Shown here piece after piece: positions 5,205 through 45,552 of a stretch of 47,175 nucleotides of DNA (position 1 is the first letter of the stretch; each line of letters opens with the position of its first letter). The DNA is taken from the sequence record SRR22947727_2426; one strand, given 5' to 3'. The position numbers and the translations under genes were made by a program. The notes below the pieces were generated by a model. The model saw only the letters and a program-made list of their open reading frames with translations. It was not told the DNA's origin and made no database searches.

Positions 5205-6533
5205 TTACGCCAAAATCACATCCACCGTCCGCGCCGCCGCTCCACGATGCATTTCCATCTCTGCCTGACCGCGTTTTGCCATGTCAGCGGCTTTCTCTGA
5301 ATCTGCCAGAACATCAGCAATCGCTTTTTCCAACAAATCCGCGTCACTTGCCGGTAATTGGATAATTCCCTCTGCCGCAACGAGATCAGCCATCACGCCG
5401 GAGAAATTTTGCATGTTCGGGCCGACGATCGTGGGCCGTCCTGCCATGACGGGTTCGACGGGGTTCTGGCCGCCTTTTCCGGTGATGCTTTTTCCGATGA
5501 CGACGGCGTCAGCAAGGAAAAACCAGGCGCGGAGCTCTCCGGTGGTGTTGGCGATTAATGCCGGATTTTCGAACGCACCCTGTTGGTTCGATGAACGTAC
5601 CCTATTGGTTCGTAAAACGGAGGAAATGTCCTCGGCCACGAGTTCAGCCTGTATTTCTCCCGCGCGTTCGGCGTGACGGGGAACGATCACGAGCGCGAGA
5701 TCGGGCGTGGTTTTTTGAAGGTTCCGCCAAATTTTTCCGAGCAAGGCTTCCTCGCCGGCGTGGGTGCTGCCGCCAAGTAAAATGGGCTGATCATCGGTCA
5801 CGCCGTTTTCGCGAAGCCAGGTTCGCAGCTCTTCGATTTTTGCGTCGGGGCGATCGGTGGCTTGATCTTCGTCGAATTTTACGCTGCGGGTCAGGGTGAT
5901 GTTGTTGCGATCAATTCCGAGACTGCTCCAGCGATTAAAATCACCTTCAAACGGAACGCAGACGTGATTCACCATGCCGAAAATGGGACGAATCATAGCG
6001 CCGAATTGCAAATAGCGTTTTTCGGATCGAGGCGATAACCGCGCGTTCACGAGATGAATCGGGATGTCGCGTTTTTGAATCTGGCGACACAAATTGGGCC
6101 ACACTTCGGCTTCGACGAGGATCAGTTTTTCGGGCCGGATTAGCTTGATAGCCCGCCACGTCACGAGCGGGACGTCGACGGGATTGTGCAACACGGTGAC
6201 GTTTTTGGAATCGATGTATTTGTCGTCGGCGAGTTTCAATCCGGTCGTCGTCGTAGTCGTGAGAACGATGTTGCGATCCGGTTCGCGGTCGAGCAGGGCG
6301 GCGATTATTTTTTCGGCGACGAGAATTTCGCCAACGCTGACGGCGTGAATCCAGAAATTTCCCTCGCGGCTCAGTTTTTCGATGACTTCGGGTTTATAAA
6401 ATCCAAAACGCTGGCGAAAATTCCGTGCGAGCCCACCGCGACGGATTCCTTTGATAATAAAGGAAGGAAAACTGACGATCAGAAAAATCGGCAGCAGCAA
6501 ATTGTAGATAAATAGAACGATGCAGAGAGGCAT
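5205..6533 (-). CDS. waaA: 3-deoxy-D-manno-octulosonate (Kdo) transferase
   Basis: WIHAVSVGE, TTTTG, EAEVWPN, NARLS, STHAGEE, VPRHAER, GGQNPVEP, GPNMQNF. Confidence 0.95.
   Translation of the reverse strand: MPLCIVLFIYNLLLPIFLIVSFPSFIIKGIRRGGLARNFRQRFGFYKPEVIEKLSREGNFWIHAVSVGEILVAEKIIAALLDREPDRNIVLTTTTTTGLKLADDKYIDSKNVTVLHNPVDVPLVTWRAIKLIRPEKLILVEAEVWPNLCRQIQKRDIPIHLVNARLSPRSEKRYLQFGAMIRPIFGMVNHVCVPFEGDFNRWSSLGIDRNNITLTRSVKFDEDQATDRPDAKIEELRTWLRENGVTDDQPILLGGSTHAGEEALLGKIWRNLQKTTPDLALVIVPRHAERAGEIQAELVAEDISSVLRTNRVRSSNQQGAFENPALIANTTGELRAWFFLADAVVIGKSITGKGGQNPVEPVMAGRPTIVGPNMQNFSGVMADLVAAEGIIQLPASDADLLEKAIADVLADSEKAADMAKRGQAEMEMHRGAAARTVDVILA
5565..5617. repeat. Dispersed 53-bp bipartite element, copy A (direct arrangement), inside waaA
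   Basis: attttc-GAAC gcaccctgttg GTTC-gat-GAAC gtaccctattg GTTC-gtaaaa. Confidence 0.9.
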
Positions 6534-16073: not shown

Positions 16074-17243
16074 CTACGAATTAATTATGACGCGTGAGCC
16101 GGAAGTCGGCATCACGATCCGGAGTTTTCCGACTGCCTTTTCAATTTTGGAAACGACGTCCGAAATCTCCACAGCGTTTGTGTATTTCGAAAGCGAAAAC
16201 CGAACGCTACTCCGAGCTCGATCCGATGAATAACCCATTGCTTTGATAATTCGGCTCGGCTTCACTGAACCCGTGCTGCACGCCGAACCGGGCGAACAAC
16301 AAACTCCAGCTTCGTCGAGAAGGATCAGTAAGCCTTCGCCGTCGACCCCCGGAAAGGATAGGTTTGAAGTGTTCGGTAATCGCTGATCGCGGTCTCCATT
16401 CACCTCGATGCCTTCGATTTTCTCAATAACAGCGGTTTCAAAATCGTCCCGCAACTGGCGCATCGAATCGTGGTGATCCATCGCTGCCAGCGTAATTTCA
16501 GCCGCTTTTCCAAAACCGACGATCCCCGCAACGTTTTCCGTCCCAGAACGTCGCCCGCCTTCCTGACCTCCGCCCAAAATCGTCGGCTGGAATCGTGAAT
16601 TCTGATTCACAAAAAGCGCGCCGATTCCCTTAGGCCCATGAAGTTTGTGAGCAGAAATTGAAAGCATCTGGATCGGTGAATCCGCGACCGATACAGGAAC
16701 TTTTCCGACCGCTTGAACCGCATCCGTATGGAAACAAACACCGTGGCTTTTCGCCGCTGCGGCAGCTTCTGCGATGGGCGAAAGCACACCCGTTTCATTG
16801 TTCGCAAAGATCAAACTCGCAATCGTCGTCCTGTCCGAAAGGGCTGATTCCCACGCATCAAGGTCGAGCCGTCCGCACGAATCAACAGGGTTCATTCGAT
16901 GAACGTACCCTATTGATTCGTAAAACTCACCCGCTTCAAAAATCGCGCTGTGTTCAACCGTGCTTGTAAGAATTTCTTTTCGATCCGGCCACGTGCCAAT
17001 GGCTGAACGCAACGCCGAATGATTCGACTCCGTCCCGCCGCTTGTGAAAATGATTTCTTCAGGCTGCGCTGAAATCAATGCGGCAACTTGCTCACGCGCC
17101 GTCTCGATTGCTTTTTTCGCGGCTTTTCCAAATCGATAACTCGCCGACGGGTTGCCATAATTCTCGTCGCCCAGCCACGGAAGCATTGCTTCGCGAACTT
17201 CGGGATCGAGAGCGGTTGTGGCGTTATTATCGAGATAGATCAT
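16074..17243 (-). CDS. iscS: Cysteine desulfurase (IscS/NifS group I)
   Basis: Start MIYLDNNATT (ATG 17243); GNPS, FTSGGTESN, NNETG, HTDAVQ, PLP-lysine SAHKLHGPKG, RSGTENV, catalytic GSACS. Confidence 0.93.
   Translation of the reverse strand: MIYLDNNATTALDPEVREAMLPWLGDENYGNPSASYRFGKAAKKAIETAREQVAALISAQPEEIIFTSGGTESNHSALRSAIGTWPDRKEILTSTVEHSAIFEAGEFYESIGYVHRMNPVDSCGRLDLDAWESALSDRTTIASLIFANNETGVLSPIAEAAAAAKSHGVCFHTDAVQAVGKVPVSVADSPIQMLSISAHKLHGPKGIGALFVNQNSRFQPTILGGGQEGGRRSGTENVAGIVGFGKAAEITLAAMDHHDSMRQLRDDFETAVIEKIEGIEVNGDRDQRLPNTSNLSFPGVDGEGLLILLDEAGVCCSPGSACSTGSVKPSRIIKAMGYSSDRARSSVRFSLSKYTNAVEISDVVSKIEKAVGKLRIVMPTSGSRVIINS
16873..16925. repeat. Dispersed bipartite element, copy B (inverted arrangement), inside the cysteine desulfurase gene
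   Basis: ccgcac-GAAT caacagggttc ATTC-gat-GAAC gtaccctattg ATTC-gtaaaa. Confidence 0.9.
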
Positions 17244-18777: not shown

Positions 18778-21700
18778 TCACTTACCGCTTCCCAATTCTT
18801 CGTAGTATTTTTTCACCAACTCTCGGAATTCACTCGGAACAGGATCGCGATCAATCGGGGCGAGGGGATTTTCCTTATCCAATTTCGCCAGCTCTTCGGT
18901 TAAGCGATTCCGCATTTCTACGAGCGGATTGGTGATTCGTGTCGTGATTTGATCAGCTTGTGGCGGCAGGTTGTCGCGGCGATAATCAATCCGCATGGCG
19001 CGGGCATTGTCAGAAACTTTCGCGATTTCGTTTTTCAAATCCTCGTCCTCAACCATCTCTTCAATGTTGCTAAGCTTTTTCGCGAACTCCTCGTAGCCCT
19101 CGCCCGTGATCGGATCGAGTGAGATTTCTTCTTCAGGCTGATTGAAAAACAAAGGTTTTCCAGGCTGCGCTGCACCTCCGGGAGGTGGTCCATTTCGGCG
19201 ATCATCTCCGCCGCCGTTGTTTAGAGCACCGCCTCCACCACGTTGGTCGCCCGCTGATTCGCTTGGCGGAGGGTTGTTCGCAAAACCCTGACTATAGCCT
19301 TTGCCTTTGCCTTGGCCCTTTCCCTTACCCTTGCCTTTTCCTTCACCTTTTTCACCAGCTCCTTTTCCCTCACCCTCACCCTTGCCCTCTCCTTGACCTT
19401 TGCCCTTGCCGTCAGGCCCTTTTCCTTTTTCGCCTTTTACATTCTCAGCAAGCTGGCCCGGCTCACCTTTGCCTTTGCCCTCGCCGGGTCGTTTCGGCCC
19501 GTCCGATTTTTCACCTTTACCTGCGCCAGGTTGCTCTCCTTTTGGTGAACCTTTGGAGCTGTCGCCTTTGCCATCAGGGCTTGGCGTGCCCTTGCCTTTT
19601 TCCGCCATTTGCTGACCGCCGGGTTCCTGTCCGTCTGCTGCCGGGGTGAAGCCCTGTTCTTTCATTTTCTCCTCAATTTCTTCGTTCGAGGCGGATGGGA
19701 AGCCCGCATTTTTAAGCTGTTCTGCAGTGGCAACTTCTCCGGTTTCTGAGTTCTCAAACCGGGGTGCATCTCCAGGTTTTCCATCTGGTCCGCGCCGCTG
19801 TCCTTCCGCCACCTCCGTGTCCTCGCCATTTTTTCCGGGTTGATTGCCTCCTAATTTCTTCGCTTCTGCTTCCGTTTTTTCGATCAAGTCATCCAGCTCA
19901 CTTCGCGCAAGTCGCAGCGCATCCGCCTCGTTGCCGAGCACTTTTTCGGCGGCAGCTTCAATGTCCTTTTTCAATTCTTCAATTCCCCGAGCTGCGGCAC
20001 GCTCAGGCTCGACGGCCATTTCACGGCGATTGTAGCGGGTCAGCTGACTTGCCTCCGCCAACGAATTCTCCACCCCACTCGTCGTGCTTTCGCGAACGCC
20101 TTCGTAAAGCGCAGTTGAAAGCAACGGCTCAGATTCTTCGCTCTGCTCGCTGAGTTTGCGCATCTGATCAATCAAGTCATTCAGCTTCTTCTTTTGAGCG
20201 TCGATCTCCCGGGATAAAGCCAGATTTTCTGCCGGTGAATTGGCCTGATCAAAAACGTCTTTGCCCTGTTCACTTTCATCCAGCTTCTTGCCAATCGCTT
20301 CCTGGGCGTCGGCCAATTCCCGTGCCTTGTTCCGCATCTCGCGCATTTCGCCGGCGAATTGCCGTGAGGTCTTTTCGCGGAAATCTTCCTTCACCTCTTC
20401 CAATTCACGCTGTGCGCGTGTGGCTGAGTTTGCTGCGTCCGCGAGCTTGCCCTCATCGAGTTTCTCTGCGGTTTCTTTTACCGCCTCGCGTGTTTCCTCC
20501 AATTTCTCCCGCTCCTCCGCCATGTTGGCGCGATTCTCTTCGGAGTCCATTTTCTCGGTGACTTCATCAAGTTCCCGCAGGAGTTGCTCCTGTTCTTCTT
20601 GAAGGCGTTTCAGTTGGCGTTCCAATTCGGATTTCTCTTCTTCGGTTTTTGCTTCCTGGAGGGCGGACTCGAGTTCTTTGATTTTCTTCGCAATGGCTTC
20701 CTGACGTTTCGCCAATTCTTTCAAGCGGGTCAGAACTTCGAGGTTTGCCTTTTGTTCAGGCGTTGTCGGCATTTCCTCTTCGGCCATTCGCTGCTCTTCG
20801 TAGCGAAGCTCCTTCTGCTTCATTTCGAGCTCCATCATCTGCTGCTCTTTCGGTTGGCCCGGTTTTCCCTGACTGGGGTCTTGAGACATGGTCACGTTGT
20901 GCTCGCGATTTTTGGCTCTTACCAGCGTTTGGTAGGCATCTTTTGCAAAATCCAAAGCCGGCTCCAATTTTTTCCCATCCGGTTTTTCGAGAGCAACCGT
21001 CCATTCGCCGACGGCTTTCTCCATGAACCCACGAGCTTCGGTAAACAGAGCTTTCACCTCGGCGTCTTCGACTTTTTCCATCGCTTCATCAAGGAGACCG
21101 ATCGTGATCTCCTGAGACTGTTTCAAAACATCAACGTCGCTGGCGAGTTCTTCAATCGTCCGTCCCATTTGTTCACGACGAAGTAATTTCCAGCCCGCGT
21201 TGATGACGTCTTTTTGCATCTTCATCAACTTCTCTGACTCGCCGCCTTCGCCCTCGCTGGGCTCACCTCCCTGGGATTCTTTTTCGCGAAAGATGTCTTC
21301 GAATTCCCGGACTTCAGCGAAAAACATGTCGCTCATGGTGCGGCGCACTTTCCCATCGGGACCGAGATCTTCTGCCCAGAGGTGATACGAAACCATGTCC
21401 CGTGGCTTGGCTCCGATCTCTTCAAAATTGAATTGCGTGCTGAGCGGATGATTTTTTCCGCCCGCTAGTTTTCCATCTGCAAGCGTGACATCACGATCTT
21501 CTTTCCCGACTTCAAAAGTGACGCCGACACTCATCACACCGATGTCATCCCAGACTTTGCCTTCCACTGGCATTTCCTGAAGGGCTGAGACTTCCACGTC
21601 GGTTTTAGGAAATTCAAATTCCAATTTCGGTGGCTGATTTTTCTTCACGGTCACCGTGATGATCGGCGGTCGCTTATTGGCTCGTTCGCGATCATCGACC

Positions 21701-22821
21701 AGATGCAGCCGGTATTTTTGAGTCTCTTTCGGCTGATGGGATGCCACCAATACGCTGGGATTTTCAGAACTTGCCTTTAGCGAGATGATTTCCCCATCGT
21801 CCATTCCGAAGAGTTCAGCGTCTTTGACTGGTTTATTAATCGTCATGGACCACGCCAAATCAGAACCTTCCAGCAGTGAAACTTTGCGGGTGTCCTCGAT
21901 CGTTTTCGTTTTTTGTTCAGCGTAGGCTGGCGGCGTGATTGTCGCGTCAGCCTGACCTAGCTTGGGATGAACATACGTGGTGATCTTGAATTCGTCCGAC
22001 TGCTCCCCATCAAATTCGATTCGATAAACCGCGTCCGAATCAACTTTAGTGATCAATCCGGCAAAGACCTGTTCATCCAAGCCCGGCTGTAAGGTCACCC
22101 GACCGCGCTCGGCGCCTTCCTCTCCCGGATCGCGAATCACGACCATTGCGTTGGGCGGAATTCGTCCGTTGAACTTTGCTTCAACAACCAACTTTGTGCC
22201 GCGTTCGACTTCTGCGTCGCCGGGATTTACTTTGATTTCGTAATCACCCAGTAGATCAGGAATGGGCTGTTCGATTTTCGGTTCCGGCTTCGCCACATTT
22301 TTTGCGAGCTGGAGGATCCGATTGTTTTCACTGAGCAATCCGAACATCACTGCAAAAAAAGCGATCGCCGCAACGAGCTGAAGTGCGCCAGCCTTCACCA
22401 AACGGCTTCGCGAAATTTGTTTCACCCAATCATTTTTCAGCGCGTGATTCACCGCATCGAAGACAACCTGCTCCTGCAAATAGCCAAGCTCGCCATTCGG
22501 CCCCGGCTTCTGTTCGACCGCAGTAAGAAGTGCCGCCTGCAAATCCGGGTTCTCGCTCTCGATTTTATCCGCAATTTTTTTGACCGACGTCGTTTTTGAA
22601 TCGGCCCACCACAAAGCAATCAGCGCCGCAAAAATAACGCCGACTGCGACGGTGATGACAGCCGGCCACGACCAAAAATTCTCCAGCTTCGCGAGAACGA
22701 AAAGCACCGCTGCAATCGCCGATCCGATCAGTAAAACGGCAGCGAGTGCTTTGCGCCGCCGCAATGCTGCCTCAGCAGAAATGAGCGGGCGAAGTTTTTG
22801 ATCGAGGACGTTATGGATCAT
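18778..22821 (-). CDS. Large membrane-anchored coiled-coil protein (DUF4175-like) with Gly/Lys/Glu low-complexity region
   Basis: Three N-terminal TM helices, Ig-like beta region, long coiled coil, GKGEG-type repeats, C-terminal DPVPSEFRELVKKYYEEL. Confidence 0.8.
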   Translation of the reverse strand: MIHNVLDQKLRPLISAEAALRRRKALAAVLLIGSAIAAVLFVLAKLENFWSWPAVITVAVGVIFAALIALWWADSKTTSVKKIADKIESENPDLQAALLTAVEQKPGPNGELGYLQEQVVFDAVNHALKNDWVKQISRSRLVKAGALQLVAAIAFFAVMFGLLSENNRILQLAKNVAKPEPKIEQPIPDLLGDYEIKVNPGDAEVERGTKLVVEAKFNGRIPPNAMVVIRDPGEEGAERGRVTLQPGLDEQVFAGLITKVDSDAVYRIEFDGEQSDEFKITTYVHPKLGQADATITPPAYAEQKTKTIEDTRKVSLLEGSDLAWSMTINKPVKDAELFGMDDGEIISLKASSENPSVLVASHQPKETQKYRLHLVDDRERANKRPPIITVTVKKNQPPKLEFEFPKTDVEVSALQEMPVEGKVWDDIGVMSVGVTFEVGKEDRDVTLADGKLAGGKNHPLSTQFNFEEIGAKPRDMVSYHLWAEDLGPDGKVRRTMSDMFFAEVREFEDIFREKESQGGEPSEGEGGESEKLMKMQKDVINAGWKLLRREQMGRTIEELASDVDVLKQSQEITIGLLDEAMEKVEDAEVKALFTEARGFMEKAVGEWTVALEKPDGKKLEPALDFAKDAYQTLVRAKNREHNVTMSQDPSQGKPGQPKEQQMMELEMKQKELRYEEQRMAEEEMPTTPEQKANLEVLTRLKELAKRQEAIAKKIKELESALQEAKTEEEKSELERQLKRLQEEQEQLLRELDEVTEKMDSEENRANMAEEREKLEETREAVKETAEKLDEGKLADAANSATRAQRELEEVKEDFREKTSRQFAGEMREMRNKARELADAQEAIGKKLDESEQGKDVFDQANSPAENLALSREIDAQKKKLNDLIDQMRKLSEQSEESEPLLSTALYEGVRESTTSGVENSLAEASQLTRYNRREMAVEPERAAARGIEELKKDIEAAAEKVLGNEADALRLARSELDDLIEKTEAEAKKLGGNQPGKNGEDTEVAEGQRRGPDGKPGDAPRFENSETGEVATAEQLKNAGFPSASNEEIEEKMKEQGFTPAADGQEPGGQQMAEKGKGTPSPDGKGDSSKGSPKGEQPGAGKGEKSDGPKRPGEGKGKGEPGQLAENVKGEKGKGPDGKGKGQGEGKGEGEGKGAGEKGEGKGKGKGKGQGKGKGYSQGFANNPPPSESAGDQRGGGGALNNGGGDDRRNGPPPGGAAQPGKPLFFNQPEEEISLDPITGEGYEEFAKKLSNIEEMVEDEDLKNEIAKVSDNARAMRIDYRRDNLPPQADQITTRITNPLVEMRNRLTEELAKLDKENPLAPIDRDPVPSEFRELVKKYYEELGSGK

Positions 22822-22866: not shown

Positions 22867-22919
22867 TTAAACGAATCAACAGGGTCTGTTTGATGAACCA
22901 ACCCTGTTGGTTCGTTAAA
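22867..22919. repeat. Dispersed bipartite element, copy C (inverted arrangement), intergenic
   Basis: ttaaac-GAAT caacagggtct GTTT-gat-GAAC caaccctgttg GTTC-gttaaa. Confidence 0.9.
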
Positions 22920-27573: not shown

Positions 27574-28290
27574 ATGTCCGCCAGCATGATCGAAGCGAGC
27601 GAAAAATCAACCGTCACCCGCGCCCAAATTGCCGATAGCATTTGGCTGGATGGTCGTCTCGCGATTTGGCATGAAACGTCGAACTGGCTGGCGTTGAGTG
27701 ATGTTCACTACGGTTACGAGCTTTCGCGAAAGGCAATCGGTGGTTTGTGGCCAAATTGGGGAATGGCAGCGATCGAGGAACGGCTGGGTGAAATGATTGA
27801 TGAATATGCGCCCGAAAAGCTAATTCTCGTCGGCGATATTATCGATTCCAGCTTCGTCGGCATGGAGGGGATTCAATTTCTCGAGAAAATCATCGAGCGC
27901 ACGCCGGGCGAGGTCATTTTTGTGGAAGGGAATCACGACCGGGGCACGATCAAAGCCAAATTCGACTGGGTTCCGCAGTTTGATATTGACGGATTTCTAT
28001 TTCATCATGGTCATCAGCCGACGCCTTTGGGAGATTATAAAACGGAGGTTGTGGGACATTTTCATCCGTCGGTGAATCTTCGCGATGGAGCGGGGATGTC
28101 GCTGCGAATTCCATCGCTGGTTCAGGAGAGCTACAAAAATCAGGCGGACCGCTGGGTACTGCCGGCCTTTTCCCCGTGGGCCGGAGGTGGACGATTTAAA
28201 ATCGCGGAAGGTTGCGAAAGTGCTCGGCAATGGGTTGCGAGCACGACGCGAGTTTTTGAACTTCACGATCCAACCCTTTTGGATCGATGA
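27574..28290 (+). CDS. Calcineurin-like metallophosphoesterase (PdeM/ICC-like)
   Basis: SDVHYG, VGDI, GNHD, HHGH, GHFHP, LPAF motifs. Confidence 0.85.
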   Translation: MSASMIEASEKSTVTRAQIADSIWLDGRLAIWHETSNWLALSDVHYGYELSRKAIGGLWPNWGMAAIEERLGEMIDEYAPEKLILVGDIIDSSFVGMEGIQFLEKIIERTPGEVIFVEGNHDRGTIKAKFDWVPQFDIDGFLFHHGHQPTPLGDYKTEVVGHFHPSVNLRDGAGMSLRIPSLVQESYKNQADRWVLPAFSPWAGGGRFKIAEGCESARQWVASTTRVFELHDPTLLDR

Positions 28291-28313
28291 ACAGACCTTA
28301 GTAGTTCGTAACA
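28261..28313. repeat. Dispersed bipartite element, copy D (direct arrangement), spanning the metallophosphoesterase stop codon
   Basis: cttcac-GATC caacccttttg GATC-gat-GAAC agaccttagta GTTC-gtaaca. Confidence 0.8.
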
Positions 28314-28370
28314 GAAGCATCTTGCGATTGCCGTTCCGGCCGTCTCCAGACCGCTGGACAAGCCAGCTTT

Positions 28371-34925: not shown

Positions 34926-34978
34926 TTTTACGAATCAACTCTATTGGTTCAACGAACAGACCCTGTTGGATCGTGGAA
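34926..34978. repeat. Dispersed bipartite element, copy E (direct arrangement), intergenic
   Basis: ttttac-GAAT caactctattg GTTC-aac-GAAC agaccctgttg GATC-gtggaa. Confidence 0.88.
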
Positions 34979-35591: not shown

Positions 35592-35945
35592 TCAGCCACG
35601 GCCAATAATTAGCTTTGCGAACTTGTTTTGCTCGGCAGGTTTCCCGCCTGCGGCACTCAGGATTGGACGATAAAGGGAATTCAGAAACGGATATTCAACG
35701 AAGTAGTAGCGAGTTATTCCTTCTTCACTTGGTCTTTTCTGCCAGGCTCTCCACTCGGGAGTTTGTGCACGGGGAATAAAGGTTTTTGAAGTCAGGAAAC
35801 GGTTTCCTCCAAGAGGATCTTCAATCCGCGCCACAAAAGCAAGAGGAGCCAAGTAAACTAATGTCGCCAAAACGAAAATAACTAGCGCAGTCCCGCAAAT
35901 TCTGAAAAGCCGCTCGCCACGCCTTTAATTCGTTTCTTCCGCCAT
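35592..35945 (-). pseudogene. Small membrane-protein pseudogene, paralog of 36081..36350
   Basis: ATG 35945 reads MAEETN*RRGERLFRICGTALVIFVLATLVYLAPL with an in-frame TAA at 35925-35927, where the paralog has Tyr. Confidence 0.65.
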
Positions 35946-36080
35946 CAAAACCAGCGTATCACACCCCAAAATTCTTTCCCACTCTCAACTTGGTTTCTTG
36001 AATCATCGAACACCAATGATGAAATTCGCGAATTTGTTTGATTCACCCTCAAGGTTGGCTGTGGAGATCAAGACTGGTCG

Positions 36081-36350
36081 TTAAAAGGTGTCGAGAATGG
36101 GGATTTTCAAATAAAAGCCAAACCTTGGCATCGTTGGCGCAGCAACAGAGGCTGATTGAAAGTTCAATGAAGCTGAATCGGAAGAGGGGCTGGGCATCAT
36201 GACGGCGAAATCGAGAAAGCGCTTATCTACTGACTGTTTTTCAAGTCGAGCCAAATAGACCAATGCCGCCGCCACGAGAACTACCAGCCAAATTCCACAA
36301 TTTCTAAAAAGCCTCTCGCAACGCCTGTATTTCGTTTCATCCGCCATCAT
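36081..36350 (-). CDS. Small hypothetical single-TM protein (possibly a remnant)
   Basis: MMADETKYRRCERLFRNCGIWLVVLVAAALVYLARLE; N-terminus duplicated ~402 bp away. Confidence 0.5.
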   Translation of the reverse strand: MMADETKYRRCERLFRNCGIWLVVLVAAALVYLARLEKQSVDKRFLDFAVMMPSPSSDSASLNFQSASVAAPTMPRFGFYLKIPILDTF

Positions 36351-36390
36351 AACCAGCCTATCACGGCGTAAAATTCTTCCCACTCTCAAC

Positions 36391-36457: not shown

Positions 36458-36532
36458 AGCACGATAGCTCAGGGGTAGAGCAGAGGACTCATAAGCCTAA
36501 GGTCGGGAGTTCAAATCTCCCTCGTGCTACCA
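36458..36532 (+). tRNA. tRNA with CAT anticodon (elongator Met or Ile2), CCA encoded
   Basis: AGCACGA/TCGTGCT acceptor stem, GCTC/GAGC D-stem, CT-CAT-AA loop, GGGAG-TTCAAAT-CTCCC T-arm, ACCA end. Paired 1:72 and no GGG/CCC anticodon stem, so not the initiator. Confidence 0.95.
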
Positions 36533-43323: not shown

Positions 43324-43376
43324 TTTTACGAAGCAATAGGGTTGGTTCATTGAACGGACCCTATTGATTCGAAAAA
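43324..43376. repeat. Dispersed bipartite element, copy F1 (inverted arrangement), abutting the rpsS stop codon
   Basis: ttttac-GAAG caatagggttg GTTC-att-GAAC ggaccctattg ATTC-gaaaaa. Confidence 0.92.
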
Positions 43377-43377
43377 C

Positions 43378-43430
43378 AAAAACGAAATGACCCTGTTGAA
43401 TCGACAGACTAACCCTATTGGCTCGTTCGC
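43378..43430. repeat. Dispersed bipartite element, copy F2 (direct arrangement), overlapping the start of the inserted gene
   Basis: aaaaac-GAAA tgaccctgttg AATC-gac-AGAC taaccctattg GCTC-gttcgc; 54 bp downstream of F1; contains ATG 43387. Confidence 0.8.
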
Positions 43431-44271
43431 CGCGATTGTGATCGCGGTGCTCGGCGGGGTGTGTGCTGTTGACTCGAAGGGCCAAGCGTTTTTGGGAAGT
43501 GATCCAATAGAAGTGAGTCCGAAGGTTTTGGCAGACGATGCCATCACCGTTCCCAGGGAGCCGCAGTTGGTTGCAGATTCAATCGAGTTGGCCGAGACGA
43601 AGGCTGCTCTTGAAGCACTTCAAAAACAAGTGGAGCGAGAGCGGGATAAGGCGAAAGCCGCCGAAGCTAAGGTTCGAACGCTTTCTGAGAGTTTGGCCGA
43701 AGCGAACCGGGTCCGCGAAGAGCAGACCAAGGCGCATAACGAACTTCAATTAAAAATGCAGGCTTTTGGAGTGGATCTGCTCAATGCGGATCCCAAGAGT
43801 CTGGAGAGTCGGTTGTTGAAAGCGGTTCGTGAAATCGATCAGCTCCGCCAATCAAATCAATCTCTGGGAGGTGAAGTCACCTCTTTAAGTGAAGTTCTTT
43901 TTCATTATTTACAGGCCGTTCCAGAAGCTGATTCTGAAGCTCGGAAAATGGCTGAAACGGCTCTGAAGCAAGCCAACGCTGCGTTGGGGCTCAGTGCCGG
44001 ACCTGAAATCAAGGTTGCAAAGAAAATTTCTGACGCGAAAGTTGTCAGCATTGACCCGGAAGTTGGCTTGCTTGTTGTCAATGTTGGGCGTATAAGCGGC
44101 GCTCGCATTGGCATGCCGCTCGAGGTGGTGCAGACAAATCGGCCGATTGGCTCGGCGATTGTGGTTGATGTGCGAGATTCAATTTGTGGGGCGGTATTGC
44201 AAGATGTCTACATGGCAGGAGCTGATGTAAAAGTCGGGGATGCAATTCGCCTCAAGCCTGATGAAGGTTAG
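43387..44271 (+). CDS. Non-ribosomal exported coiled-coil protein with C-terminal beta domain, within the S10 operon
   Basis: 294-aa ORF; hydrophobic N-terminal segment, long coiled coil, C-terminal VVSID...VVNVG...G-x-x-x-G...VVDVR beta-strand pattern. Confidence 0.8.
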   Translation: MTLLNRQTNPIGSFAAIVIAVLGGVCAVDSKGQAFLGSDPIEVSPKVLADDAITVPREPQLVADSIELAETKAALEALQKQVERERDKAKAAEAKVRTLSESLAEANRVREEQTKAHNELQLKMQAFGVDLLNADPKSLESRLLKAVREIDQLRQSNQSLGGEVTSLSEVLFHYLQAVPEADSEARKMAETALKQANAALGLSAGPEIKVAKKISDAKVVSIDPEVGLLVVNVGRISGARIGMPLEVVQTNRPIGSAIVVDVRDSICGAVLQDVYMAGADVKVGDAIRLKPDEG

Positions 44272-44742: not shown

Positions 44743-45552
44743 ATGGGACAAAAAGTTCATCCGATCGGATTTCGCCTCGCAGTCACCAAGGACTGGCGCT
44801 CGAAGTGGTATGCACCACCAGAAGAGTATGCGGACCAACTGCACTGCGACCTTAAGATTCGCGATTTTTTGAAGAATCGTCTTCAAAAGGGTGCTGTTTC
44901 CAAGGTATTGATCGAGCGCGCTTGGAATAGCGTTCGGGTTACTCTCCACACATCGCGTCCCGGTTTGATTATCGGTAAGCGTGGTGCTGAGATTGAGGGC
45001 ATGACGAACGTCATCTCGAAGATGTGTGCGGGTGCTCAAGTCAAAATTGACATTTTTGAAATTAAGCAGCCTGAGACAGATGCCCAGTGGGTTGCTGAGC
45101 AGGTTGCGACTCAGCTTGAGCGTCGGATTTCTTTCCGTCGTGCGATGAAGCGGACGATTCAGACGGCTATCGACTTCGGTGCGAATGGAATTCGTATTCG
45201 TTGTGCGGGTCGTCTTGGTGGAGCTGATATTGCTCGTGCTGAGCAGTATCGCGAGGGTAAGGTGCCGCTTCAAACGCTGCGTGTGCCAATTGATTACGGT
45301 TTTGCTGAAGCTGAAACGACATGGGGAATTATTGGGGTTAAGACCTGGATTACTCACGACGAAGAGAAGGCTAAGGAAGCTAAGGCTCGCGGAGCGGGTA
45401 GTGATCGTCGTGGCGGAGGTCGTGGTCGCGGTGGACCTGGCGGCGGCGGAGGTCGTGGTCGCGGTGGGCCTGGCGGTGGTCGCGGTGGGCCCGGTGGTGG
45501 TCGCGGTCGCGGCGGACCTGGTGGTGGCGGCGGAGGAGGACCTCGGCGCTGA
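44743..45552 (+). CDS. rpsC: 30S ribosomal protein S3 with RGG-rich C-terminal tail
   Basis: MGQKVHPIGFRL, RPGLIIGKRG, GRLGGADIARAE, VPLQTLR. Confidence 0.99.
   Translation: MGQKVHPIGFRLAVTKDWRSKWYAPPEEYADQLHCDLKIRDFLKNRLQKGAVSKVLIERAWNSVRVTLHTSRPGLIIGKRGAEIEGMTNVISKMCAGAQVKIDIFEIKQPETDAQWVAEQVATQLERRISFRRAMKRTIQTAIDFGANGIRIRCAGRLGGADIARAEQYREGKVPLQTLRVPIDYGFAEAETTWGIIGVKTWITHDEEKAKEAKARGAGSDRRGGGRGRGGPGGGGGRGRGGPGGGRGGPGGGRGRGGPGGGGGGGPRR

Follow-up and report, generated by a model that had tools for sequence, protein, structure and literature searches.

A 43-bp two-fold-symmetric DNA element in the coding sequence of a predicted cysteine desulfurase, and its genome-wide family

The stretch of DNA considered here (47,175 nucleotides from sequence record SRR22947727_2426, hereafter the window) carries, in frame within a gene of the cysteine desulfurase (NifS/IscS-like) type, an imperfect palindrome that recurs many times elsewhere in the genome. 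This locus raises the question of how a repeated DNA element came to lie inside a conserved enzyme, either by mobile insertion, as a consequence of RNA structure or protein preference, or by the rewriting of existing codons into a site that is read in DNA. We find that the desulfurase copy, which we call a dyad, is probably not a transposed insert but a genuine and long-established representative of a family of sequence-specific DNA recognition sites found throughout the genome.

The dyad within the desulfurase coding sequence

The host open reading frame (ORF) matches the Aminotran_5 family (PF00266, E 5.7e-72, residues 2–361) and aligns with solved NFS1/IscS chains at full length in an ungapped style (4.7e-83), with its pyridoxal phosphate (PLP)-lysine motif SAHK and its catalytic-cysteine loop GSACS aligned to those of solved cysteine desulfurases. 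With fold, PLP-lysine and cysteine loop all present, the gene is predicted to encode a cysteine desulfurase. The dyad proper spans 43 bp (16878–16920) and consists of two 14-nt arms separated by a 15-nt spacer (Table 1), whose inner dyad departs by one base from the family consensus GTTC-nnn-GAAC. An earlier, preliminary description of this DNA had placed the element at 16873–16925, which is off by 2–3 nt, the in-frame codons lying at 16875–16928; its sequence was present and the remainder exact. Within the window, the 41-nt core of the dyad occurs only once, and it found matches in 0 of 100 dinucleotide shuffles. With a score of 54.8 bits, compared to 53.6 for the 90th percentile of the family, the desulfurase dyad is among the best of the ~868 copies in the genome. 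A plus-strand shadow ORF of 103 codons (16658–16969) also crosses the dyad and reads RTNQQGSFDERTLLIRK, the family's commonest intragenic frame; we regard this ORF as an artefact, since the element is open in several frames.

We compared the gene with 52 orthologs, comprising 30 from 30 relatives and 22 further ones. The first 30 are collinear through the element, except that just before the Gly 11 rows carry one residue more and 4 rows one residue less, all of them distant orthologs, and no row of this alignment contains an element-sized (~17-codon) indel. The further 22 are likewise collinear, with one additional residue in L079 as the sole exception, and solved desulfurase structures align without gaps over the same segment. 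In these alignments, the desulfurase copy is seen to fill the same 17 codons as the ordinary coding sequence of relatives, with length unchanged, and such length-neutral copies leave no room for a target-site duplication. The preliminary description had counted 25 residues from EH to PVD, the canonical length, and had proposed substitution or overwriting in place of insertion; the gap-free alignment to the solved NFS1/IscS chains bears out the count, and the absence of a ~50-bp indel from both ortholog sets supports the proposal. Its observation that a VTYL-type strand had been replaced also holds, as the canonical (E/D)(V/I)T(R/Y/W)(L/V) before PVD reads V-H-R-M/V-N in the genus and VHRMN in the gene of the window. 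Overwriting this strand would carry a cost to the protein.

Codon choice within the block points to constraint on the DNA. Where degenerate codons specify an amino acid conserved across the three species of the genus (L001–L003), 8 of the 10 codons in the 17-codon block are identical; for the remainder of the gene the count is 44 of 240 (Fisher p = 7e-5), and the block scores highest of all 17-codon windows in the gene. Between L001 and the G019 ortholog (L004), 7 of 8 block codons are identical, compared to 34% elsewhere (p = 0.003); against the G003 ortholog the figures are 4 of 9 and 37%, which is not significant. Codon identity outside the block is flat, at 0.34–0.37 against L004, L005 and L006, indicating that synonymous sites are saturated and that shared ancestry therefore does not explain the block. 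Next to this comparison stands a shuffle test, in which the peptide was kept and codons were redrawn from the gene's own usage (5000 draws; 26 of 27 rows, omitting L079 for its one-residue insertion). All 12 orthologs bearing the site, defined by ...(T/R/A/I)G(Y/H/L)..R.(N/S)PVD(S/A), beat their synonymous shuffles (fraction at least as good ≤0.0202, and 0/5000 for L001–L004 and L076), and none of the 14 other orthologs did (fractions 0.085–0.88). As far as codon use can show it, the synonymous positions of the desulfurase dyad are held to the motif, in line with the earlier suggestion that the DNA site itself is selected.

The family in the genome and among relatives

In the genome assembly, a 5.97-Mb draft of 229 contigs, the half-site ACCCTNTTGNTTCG occurs exactly 598 times, against 2 occurrences of its reversed control, and 850 times when [AT]TCG is allowed. 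The spacer measures 15 nt in all 135 exact inverted pairs, and a profile built from these pairs gave 1698 strand-hits, merged to 868 loci, with the consensus nnnnTTnACGAAnCAAnAGGGTnnGTTCnnnGAACnnACCCTnTTGnTTCGTnAA, i.e. TT-ACGAAnCAAnAGGGT-nn-GTTC-nnn-GAAC-nn-ACCCTnTTGnTTCGT-AA. An inverted partner at the fixed offset accompanies 504 of the 850 half-sites and a direct partner 22 nt off accompanies 205, while 5 have both and 136 are solitary. Inverted dimers (29-nt offset) and direct dimers (22-nt offset) differ solely in the orientation of a 7-nt core, ACAGGGT or ACCCTGT, between CGAACCA and TGGTTCG, as can be seen by comparing the copy at 5570–5612 with that at 16878–16920.

Of the 868 loci, an ORF model covering 90.0% of the genome puts 520 fully in intergenic sequence and 178 entirely within an ORF, with 170 more overlapping an ORF end. 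The median distance of intergenic copies is 21 nt to a stop codon (with 166 of 345 values <20 nt) and 77 nt to a start codon, and copies are densest in convergent spacers. Along the genome the sites are evenly spaced. With doublets within 300 nt merged, and judged against 300 simulations that included gene-aware ones, the coefficient of variation of the gaps is 0.60 compared to 0.92 ± 0.03, and the median gap is 6.1 kb compared to 4.3–4.7 kb at random; of 575 gaps, 14 are <2 kb, and a single random placement that took genes into account gave 142 of 627. The centring of sites between their neighbours (0.37–0.38 vs 0.25) is the same for intragenic and intergenic copies. Whether intragenic copies stand where suitable intergenic gaps are scarce gave a trend only (1.23 vs 1.67 mean gaps within 2.5 kb, p = 0.08, n = 22).

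Deep inside long ORFs we located 26 copies, in frames reading ..QQG.FDEPTLLDR.. (13 copies), ..E.TG.V.R.NPV.S.. (6) and ..SNRV.SSN.PCW.. (7), the last group falling mainly in doubtful ORFs or N-terminal extensions. Six intragenic copies besides that of the desulfurase were compared with orthologs in G001, G002, G019, G003 and G013, which include family-poor genomes. The PBP1C and MidA-like proteins equal their G013 orthologs in length, the squalene-hopene cyclase is of about the same length as its orthologs, and the squalene-synthase-like protein is 1–5 residues shorter than the outgroups; the DUF1553-type protein shows no gap, a conserved YQQxS..P.L..DP block having been overwritten, and the MenD copy is located in a hypervariable linker. 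Five of the six are, by these alignments, not insertions (the MenD copy, because of its linker, not being counted). In the two sister species, the element is found at the same place in five of the six genes. The squalene-hopene cyclase (L046, G000:C101:10199-12007) has ~17–18 extra residues, NVVLNEQYAFDEPIRYVR, after its copy, which are absent from all five orthologs and may represent a degenerate second unit, in this case with a gain in length.

When 41 relatives were searched with the core dyad pattern, CAANAGGGT-N15-ACCCTNTTG with one mismatch permitted and with reversed patterns as controls, it proved abundant only in G000, G001, G002, G019 and G003, at 341, 268, 685, 59 and 12 sites per strand and none for the reversed patterns. 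In G008 there are 4 sites against 1 in the control, and the remaining relatives have 0–1. The five family-rich genomes are exactly those with a site-bearing desulfurase ortholog, there being none among the others that have the ortholog locus, and six additional site-bearing genomes hold 15–78 core-dyad sites per strand, compared to 0–1 in controls. At the protein level, canonical VT(R/Y)L pairs with family-less genomes and xRxN with family-bearing ones. HRMN-like residues in motif-free genomes, which the preliminary description had named beforehand as evidence that would speak against it, were not seen, xRxN-PVD occurring only where the family is carried. Half-sites form dialects between related genera, with TTCG or ATCG ends. 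An exact half-site search had given a first impression of a genus-specific family, which was dropped when looser patterns yielded the G019 variant and the core dyad in other genera.

A maximum-likelihood tree built from 34 rows places all 12 site-bearing orthologs inside one 15-row clade (support 94/89); the nesting of three site-less rows (L080, L082 and L083) within it implies one gain and three losses. For the sequences sampled, the tree shows a single origin of the site, at the base of a clade of several genera and on a partly pre-matching stretch (E..G....PVD). The idea of overwriting stands with a qualification as to age: the arms and R-x-N-P-V-D-S are older than the genus and only the inner GTTC...GAAy (V-H-R-M) is genus-specific. 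The inner-dyad score is +15.7 for the desulfurase copy, lies between +11 and +16 across the genus and falls to between −7 and −27 outside it, and the replacements E->V, A->H and F->M, relative to the sister group, each lead towards GTTC...GAAy. On this comparison, the inner part is shown to have been brought into line with the family consensus within the genus, yielding V-H-R-M-N. The G002 ortholog has an inner GTTT-GCC-GAAT (residues L-V-C-R-M), a spacer subtype with 59 occurrences in G002, compared to 4 in G001 and one in G000; for the GTTC-ATC-GAA subtype seen in L001 and L002, the counts are 161, 38 and 59 in G000, G001 and G002. The G002 case is suggestive of a desulfurase copy that tracks its own genome's family.

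The window contains seven copies of the family, with loci 5.4–11.3 kb apart (Table 1). The copy in the Kdo-transferase gene falls between a PF04413 domain (residues 38–221) and a weak PF00534 match (residues 343–423). Apart from the family, we noted a 140-nt direct repeat (35840–35979 and 36242–36381; 77% identity, 402 nt apart) a short way upstream of a tRNA at 36458–36529, the window past 36296 lying off contig C217 of the assembly. Low-complexity coding repeats are present at 45389–45538 and 19298–19486, the former Gly/Arg-rich (GGT/CGT periodic), the latter Gly/Lys/Glu-rich and inside a 1347-residue ORF (18778–22821).

Table 1 Coordinates of the predicted desulfurase gene, its dyad and the other family copies in the window
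Feature	Position	Strand	Remarks
Direct-repeat-type copy in Kdo-transferase gene (5205–6533, minus)	5570..5612		Linker between the two Pfam domains of the gene product
Class-V aminotransferase / cysteine desulfurase (NifS/IscS-like) coding sequence, predicted	16074..17243	minus	Start set at MIYLDNN; open frame runs to 17342
18 codons spelling the element in frame, EFYESIGYVHRMNPVDSC	16875..16928	minus	Gap-free alignment to orthologs and NFS1
Left arm, CGAATCAACAGGGT	16878..16891		Codes part of Y-E-S-I-G on the minus strand
15-nt spacer, TCATTCGATGAACGT	16892..16906		Contains the inner dyad; codes Y-V-H-R-M
Right arm, ACCCTATTGATTCG	16907..16920		Reverse complement of the N-P-V-D-S codons
Intergenic copy between two minus-strand genes	22872..22914		Matrix score 71.3
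Weak degenerate copy	28265..28314		66% identity to the reference copy; under the threshold in the matrix scan
Intergenic copy	34931..34973		Score 43.6
Tandem doublet	43329..43431		43329–43371 score 75.4; 43382–43431 degenerate

Pairing, rival explanations and proposed origin

The mechanism we propose has a double-stranded DNA site that would be read by a putative protein contacting two half-sites at fixed spacing. Under selection or biased drive, point substitution or short-patch conversion would create copies where they stand and maintain them there, a way of populating coding regions that would be that of DNA uptake sequences, and the amino-acid changes would be a tolerated by-product. A dimeric reader is suggested by arms that vary independently and by mismatches without strand bias; two half-sites varying independently at a fixed spacing are what is expected of the site of a dimeric DNA-binding protein.

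An in-frame mobile insertion of a repetitive extragenic palindromic (REP), Rickettsia palindromic element (RPE) or miniature inverted-repeat transposable element (MITE)-like kind, later offset by a deletion of equal length, would account for the REP-like look of the family, a short palindrome in hundreds of copies, mostly intergenic (520/868), at a median of 21 nt from the stop codon and enriched in convergent spacers. Intragenic REPs are moreover on record as inserts, including in Opitutus terrae (PMC3733652), and the genome holds one Y1-transposase-like gene. This gene, a PF01797 match at G000:C171:2452-2754, has an in-frame TAA near its N-terminus, the sole element on its 4.9-kb contig lies ~2 kb away, and the family consensus lacks a GTAG or CGTC tag. 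The insertion account is further opposed by the constant length over 52 desulfurase orthologs and in five of six other intragenic copies, and by arms that pre-exist in genera with few family copies. Within the family, the highest mutual information is found between adjacent columns only, with none at long range, and variable positions that are unlinked in this way are unexpected for copy-and-paste subfamilies. We consider an insertion of this type very improbable.

A hairpin in the desulfurase mRNA, acting in translation, decay or processing within a family of RNA stem-loops at 3' ends, would agree with the long stem that can be drawn, with copies placed just past stop codons and with inner-stem imperfections that are G-U in the sense strand in L001, L002 and L003. 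Against such a hairpin, there is no bias of G-T over A-C mismatches towards the transcribed strand (378 vs 416 in 311 tandem-context copies and 74 vs 100 in 70 intragenic copies), and no sign of compensatory change, Watson–Crick pairs being as frequent as expected from the product of column frequencies at every variable pair of the long hairpin and of the two half-hairpins (the counts at pair 16/42, for example, are CG 179, TG 146, CA 144 and TA 103). Without strand bias or covariation, base pairing is not what is selected. Furthermore, 205 of the 850 half-sites are arranged directly and not inverted, a synonymous CCT->CCG change in L003 breaks a pair, and a scan of the window with Rfam at gathering thresholds returned one tRNA only. 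An RNA hairpin is thus unlikely. As for selection on the protein, or chance, under which the clade would prefer ...ESTGY..R.NPVDS... and the resemblance in DNA would be incidental, the conserved desulfurase residues E, G and PVD do already supply part of the arms. This account conflicts with the synonymous shuffles, which never reached the motif score for L001–L004 and L076, with the presence of the same element outside coding DNA and in each of the three reading frames, and with the restriction of the motif residues to genomes that carry the family; we regard it as barely credible. The unlinked arms and the lack of a pairing signal fit a protein that reads two duplex half-sites, with sites evolving in place towards one matrix.

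Several points weigh against this reading of the dyad as a recognition site kept in place. The evidence for length neutrality comes from intragenic copies, and the orthologs are kin, so that the 12 outcomes of the shuffle test cannot be counted as independent of one another. The three losses inside the clade indicate that the site is dispensable, and the spread of copy number across site-bearing genomes (12 to 685 sites per strand) is better fitted by drive or selfish expansion than by an essential architectural role. Subtype tracking is a single observation, the subtype making up only ~9% of the G002 family. Both stem imperfections of the desulfurase copy are G-U in the mRNA sense, as suits an RNA hairpin, and the ORF model behind the gene context and spacing is crude and was applied to a draft in 229 contigs. 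The dyad has no known binding protein, uptake bias or phenotype, and no candidate binder was identified.

As to the role of the sites, an uptake-signal-like drive is a tentative possibility, as is some other function, and a site for chromosome organisation or topology is only slightly less likely than either. More broadly, although we hold it at slightly less than an even chance, an Akkermansiaceae-like clade of Verrucomicrobiota may possess previously undescribed, genome-wide and evenly spaced 43-bp two-fold-symmetric sites that owe their presence and upkeep to substitution or short-patch conversion, even in the cores of conserved enzymes, and not to transposition, constituting either a counterpart of uptake sequences or a new chromosome-organising site, with a lineage consensus that reshapes proteins. 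If this is true, the desulfurase would be a plain example of a conserved enzyme whose protein consensus is overridden by a non-coding DNA signal, and a signal traceable over several genera would allow the age, gain and loss of sites to be measured. It would also point to a DNA-reading machine for uptake, repair, topology or nucleoid organisation, in a phylum without described uptake signals or chromosome-organising sites, and the 43-bp dyad offers a defined probe for finding the putative reader. The family further serves as a warning against assuming that every REP-like repeat spreads by insertion, since here the intragenic members are length-neutral and the arm variables unlinked.

Comparison with known systems

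Among systems in which short words populate whole genomes, Chi-like words are lineage-specific, occur every few kb, are mostly intragenic, arise without indels and are kept by the DNA-processing machine that reads them. Chi itself is 5–8 nt long, asymmetric and co-oriented with replication, whereas the dyad is long and two-fold symmetric. RPEs are palindromic repeats that lie in frame inside protein-coding genes and are tolerated there, as insertions that lengthen the protein. In contrast, the desulfurase copy and five of the six other dyad copies add no length. Two 10-mers of the motif, when looked for in the literature, gave matches only in unrelated primer lists.

PMC3733652, in which RPEs are mentioned alongside REPs, describes REPs and bacterial interspersed mosaic elements (BIMEs) as short, imperfect, high-copy palindromes, mainly extragenic, lying for the most part between tandem and convergent genes and near the 3' end of the upstream one, in monomers and inverted or direct dimers, with some copies intragenic, and the dyad family shares all of these properties. 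Intragenic REPs are recorded there as inserts, most numerous for the GTAG repeats of the verrucomicrobium Opitutus terrae, and add 20–30 residues, whereas dyad copies replace sequence; the GTAG or CGTC tag of the two superfamilies treated in that paper is also absent from the dyad consensus nnnnTTnACGAAnCAAnAGGGTnnGTTCnnnGAACnnACCCTnTTGnTTCGTnAA. A gene for a REP-associated tyrosine transposase (RAYT) flanked by repeats was not found, the genome giving one PF01797 match and the draft assembly being able to hide others. The dyad family further differs from REPs in lacking stem covariation and in its even spacing.

The uptake signal sequences (USS) of Pasteurellaceae are evenly spaced, and the DNA uptake sequences (DUS) of Neisseriaceae form inverted pairs at gene ends. 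Like both, the dyad is a lineage-specific, over-represented motif, with copies numbering in the hundreds to thousands, that enters coding regions by substitution, as indicated by the collinear alignments and the synonymous signal, and it shows a frame preference, here 13/6/7, as well as lineage dialects. In coding regions, USS and DUS arise by substitution, alter peptides, have reading-frame preferences and favour poorly conserved positions, according to PMC2817400. The differences lie in architecture, as the dyad has two 14-nt half-sites at strict spacing within 43 bp and USS/DUS have an asymmetric 9–12-nt core that acts singly, and in density, at ~1 per 7 kb compared to ~1 per kb. We found no paper treating natural transformation together with uptake sequences in Verrucomicrobia, and natural competence is not known for the lineage of this genome. 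The genome has a ComEC match (PF03772, 184.6 bits) and four HHH_3 (ComEA-like) matches, although the same searches match 10 and 11 of 14 control genomes, and for competence here these genes are permissive only. Of the known systems, DNA uptake sequences are the best behavioural match to the dyad family, which we file as a variant within the class of genome-wide recognition sites, and not as a member of the REP, RPE, MITE or USS groups.

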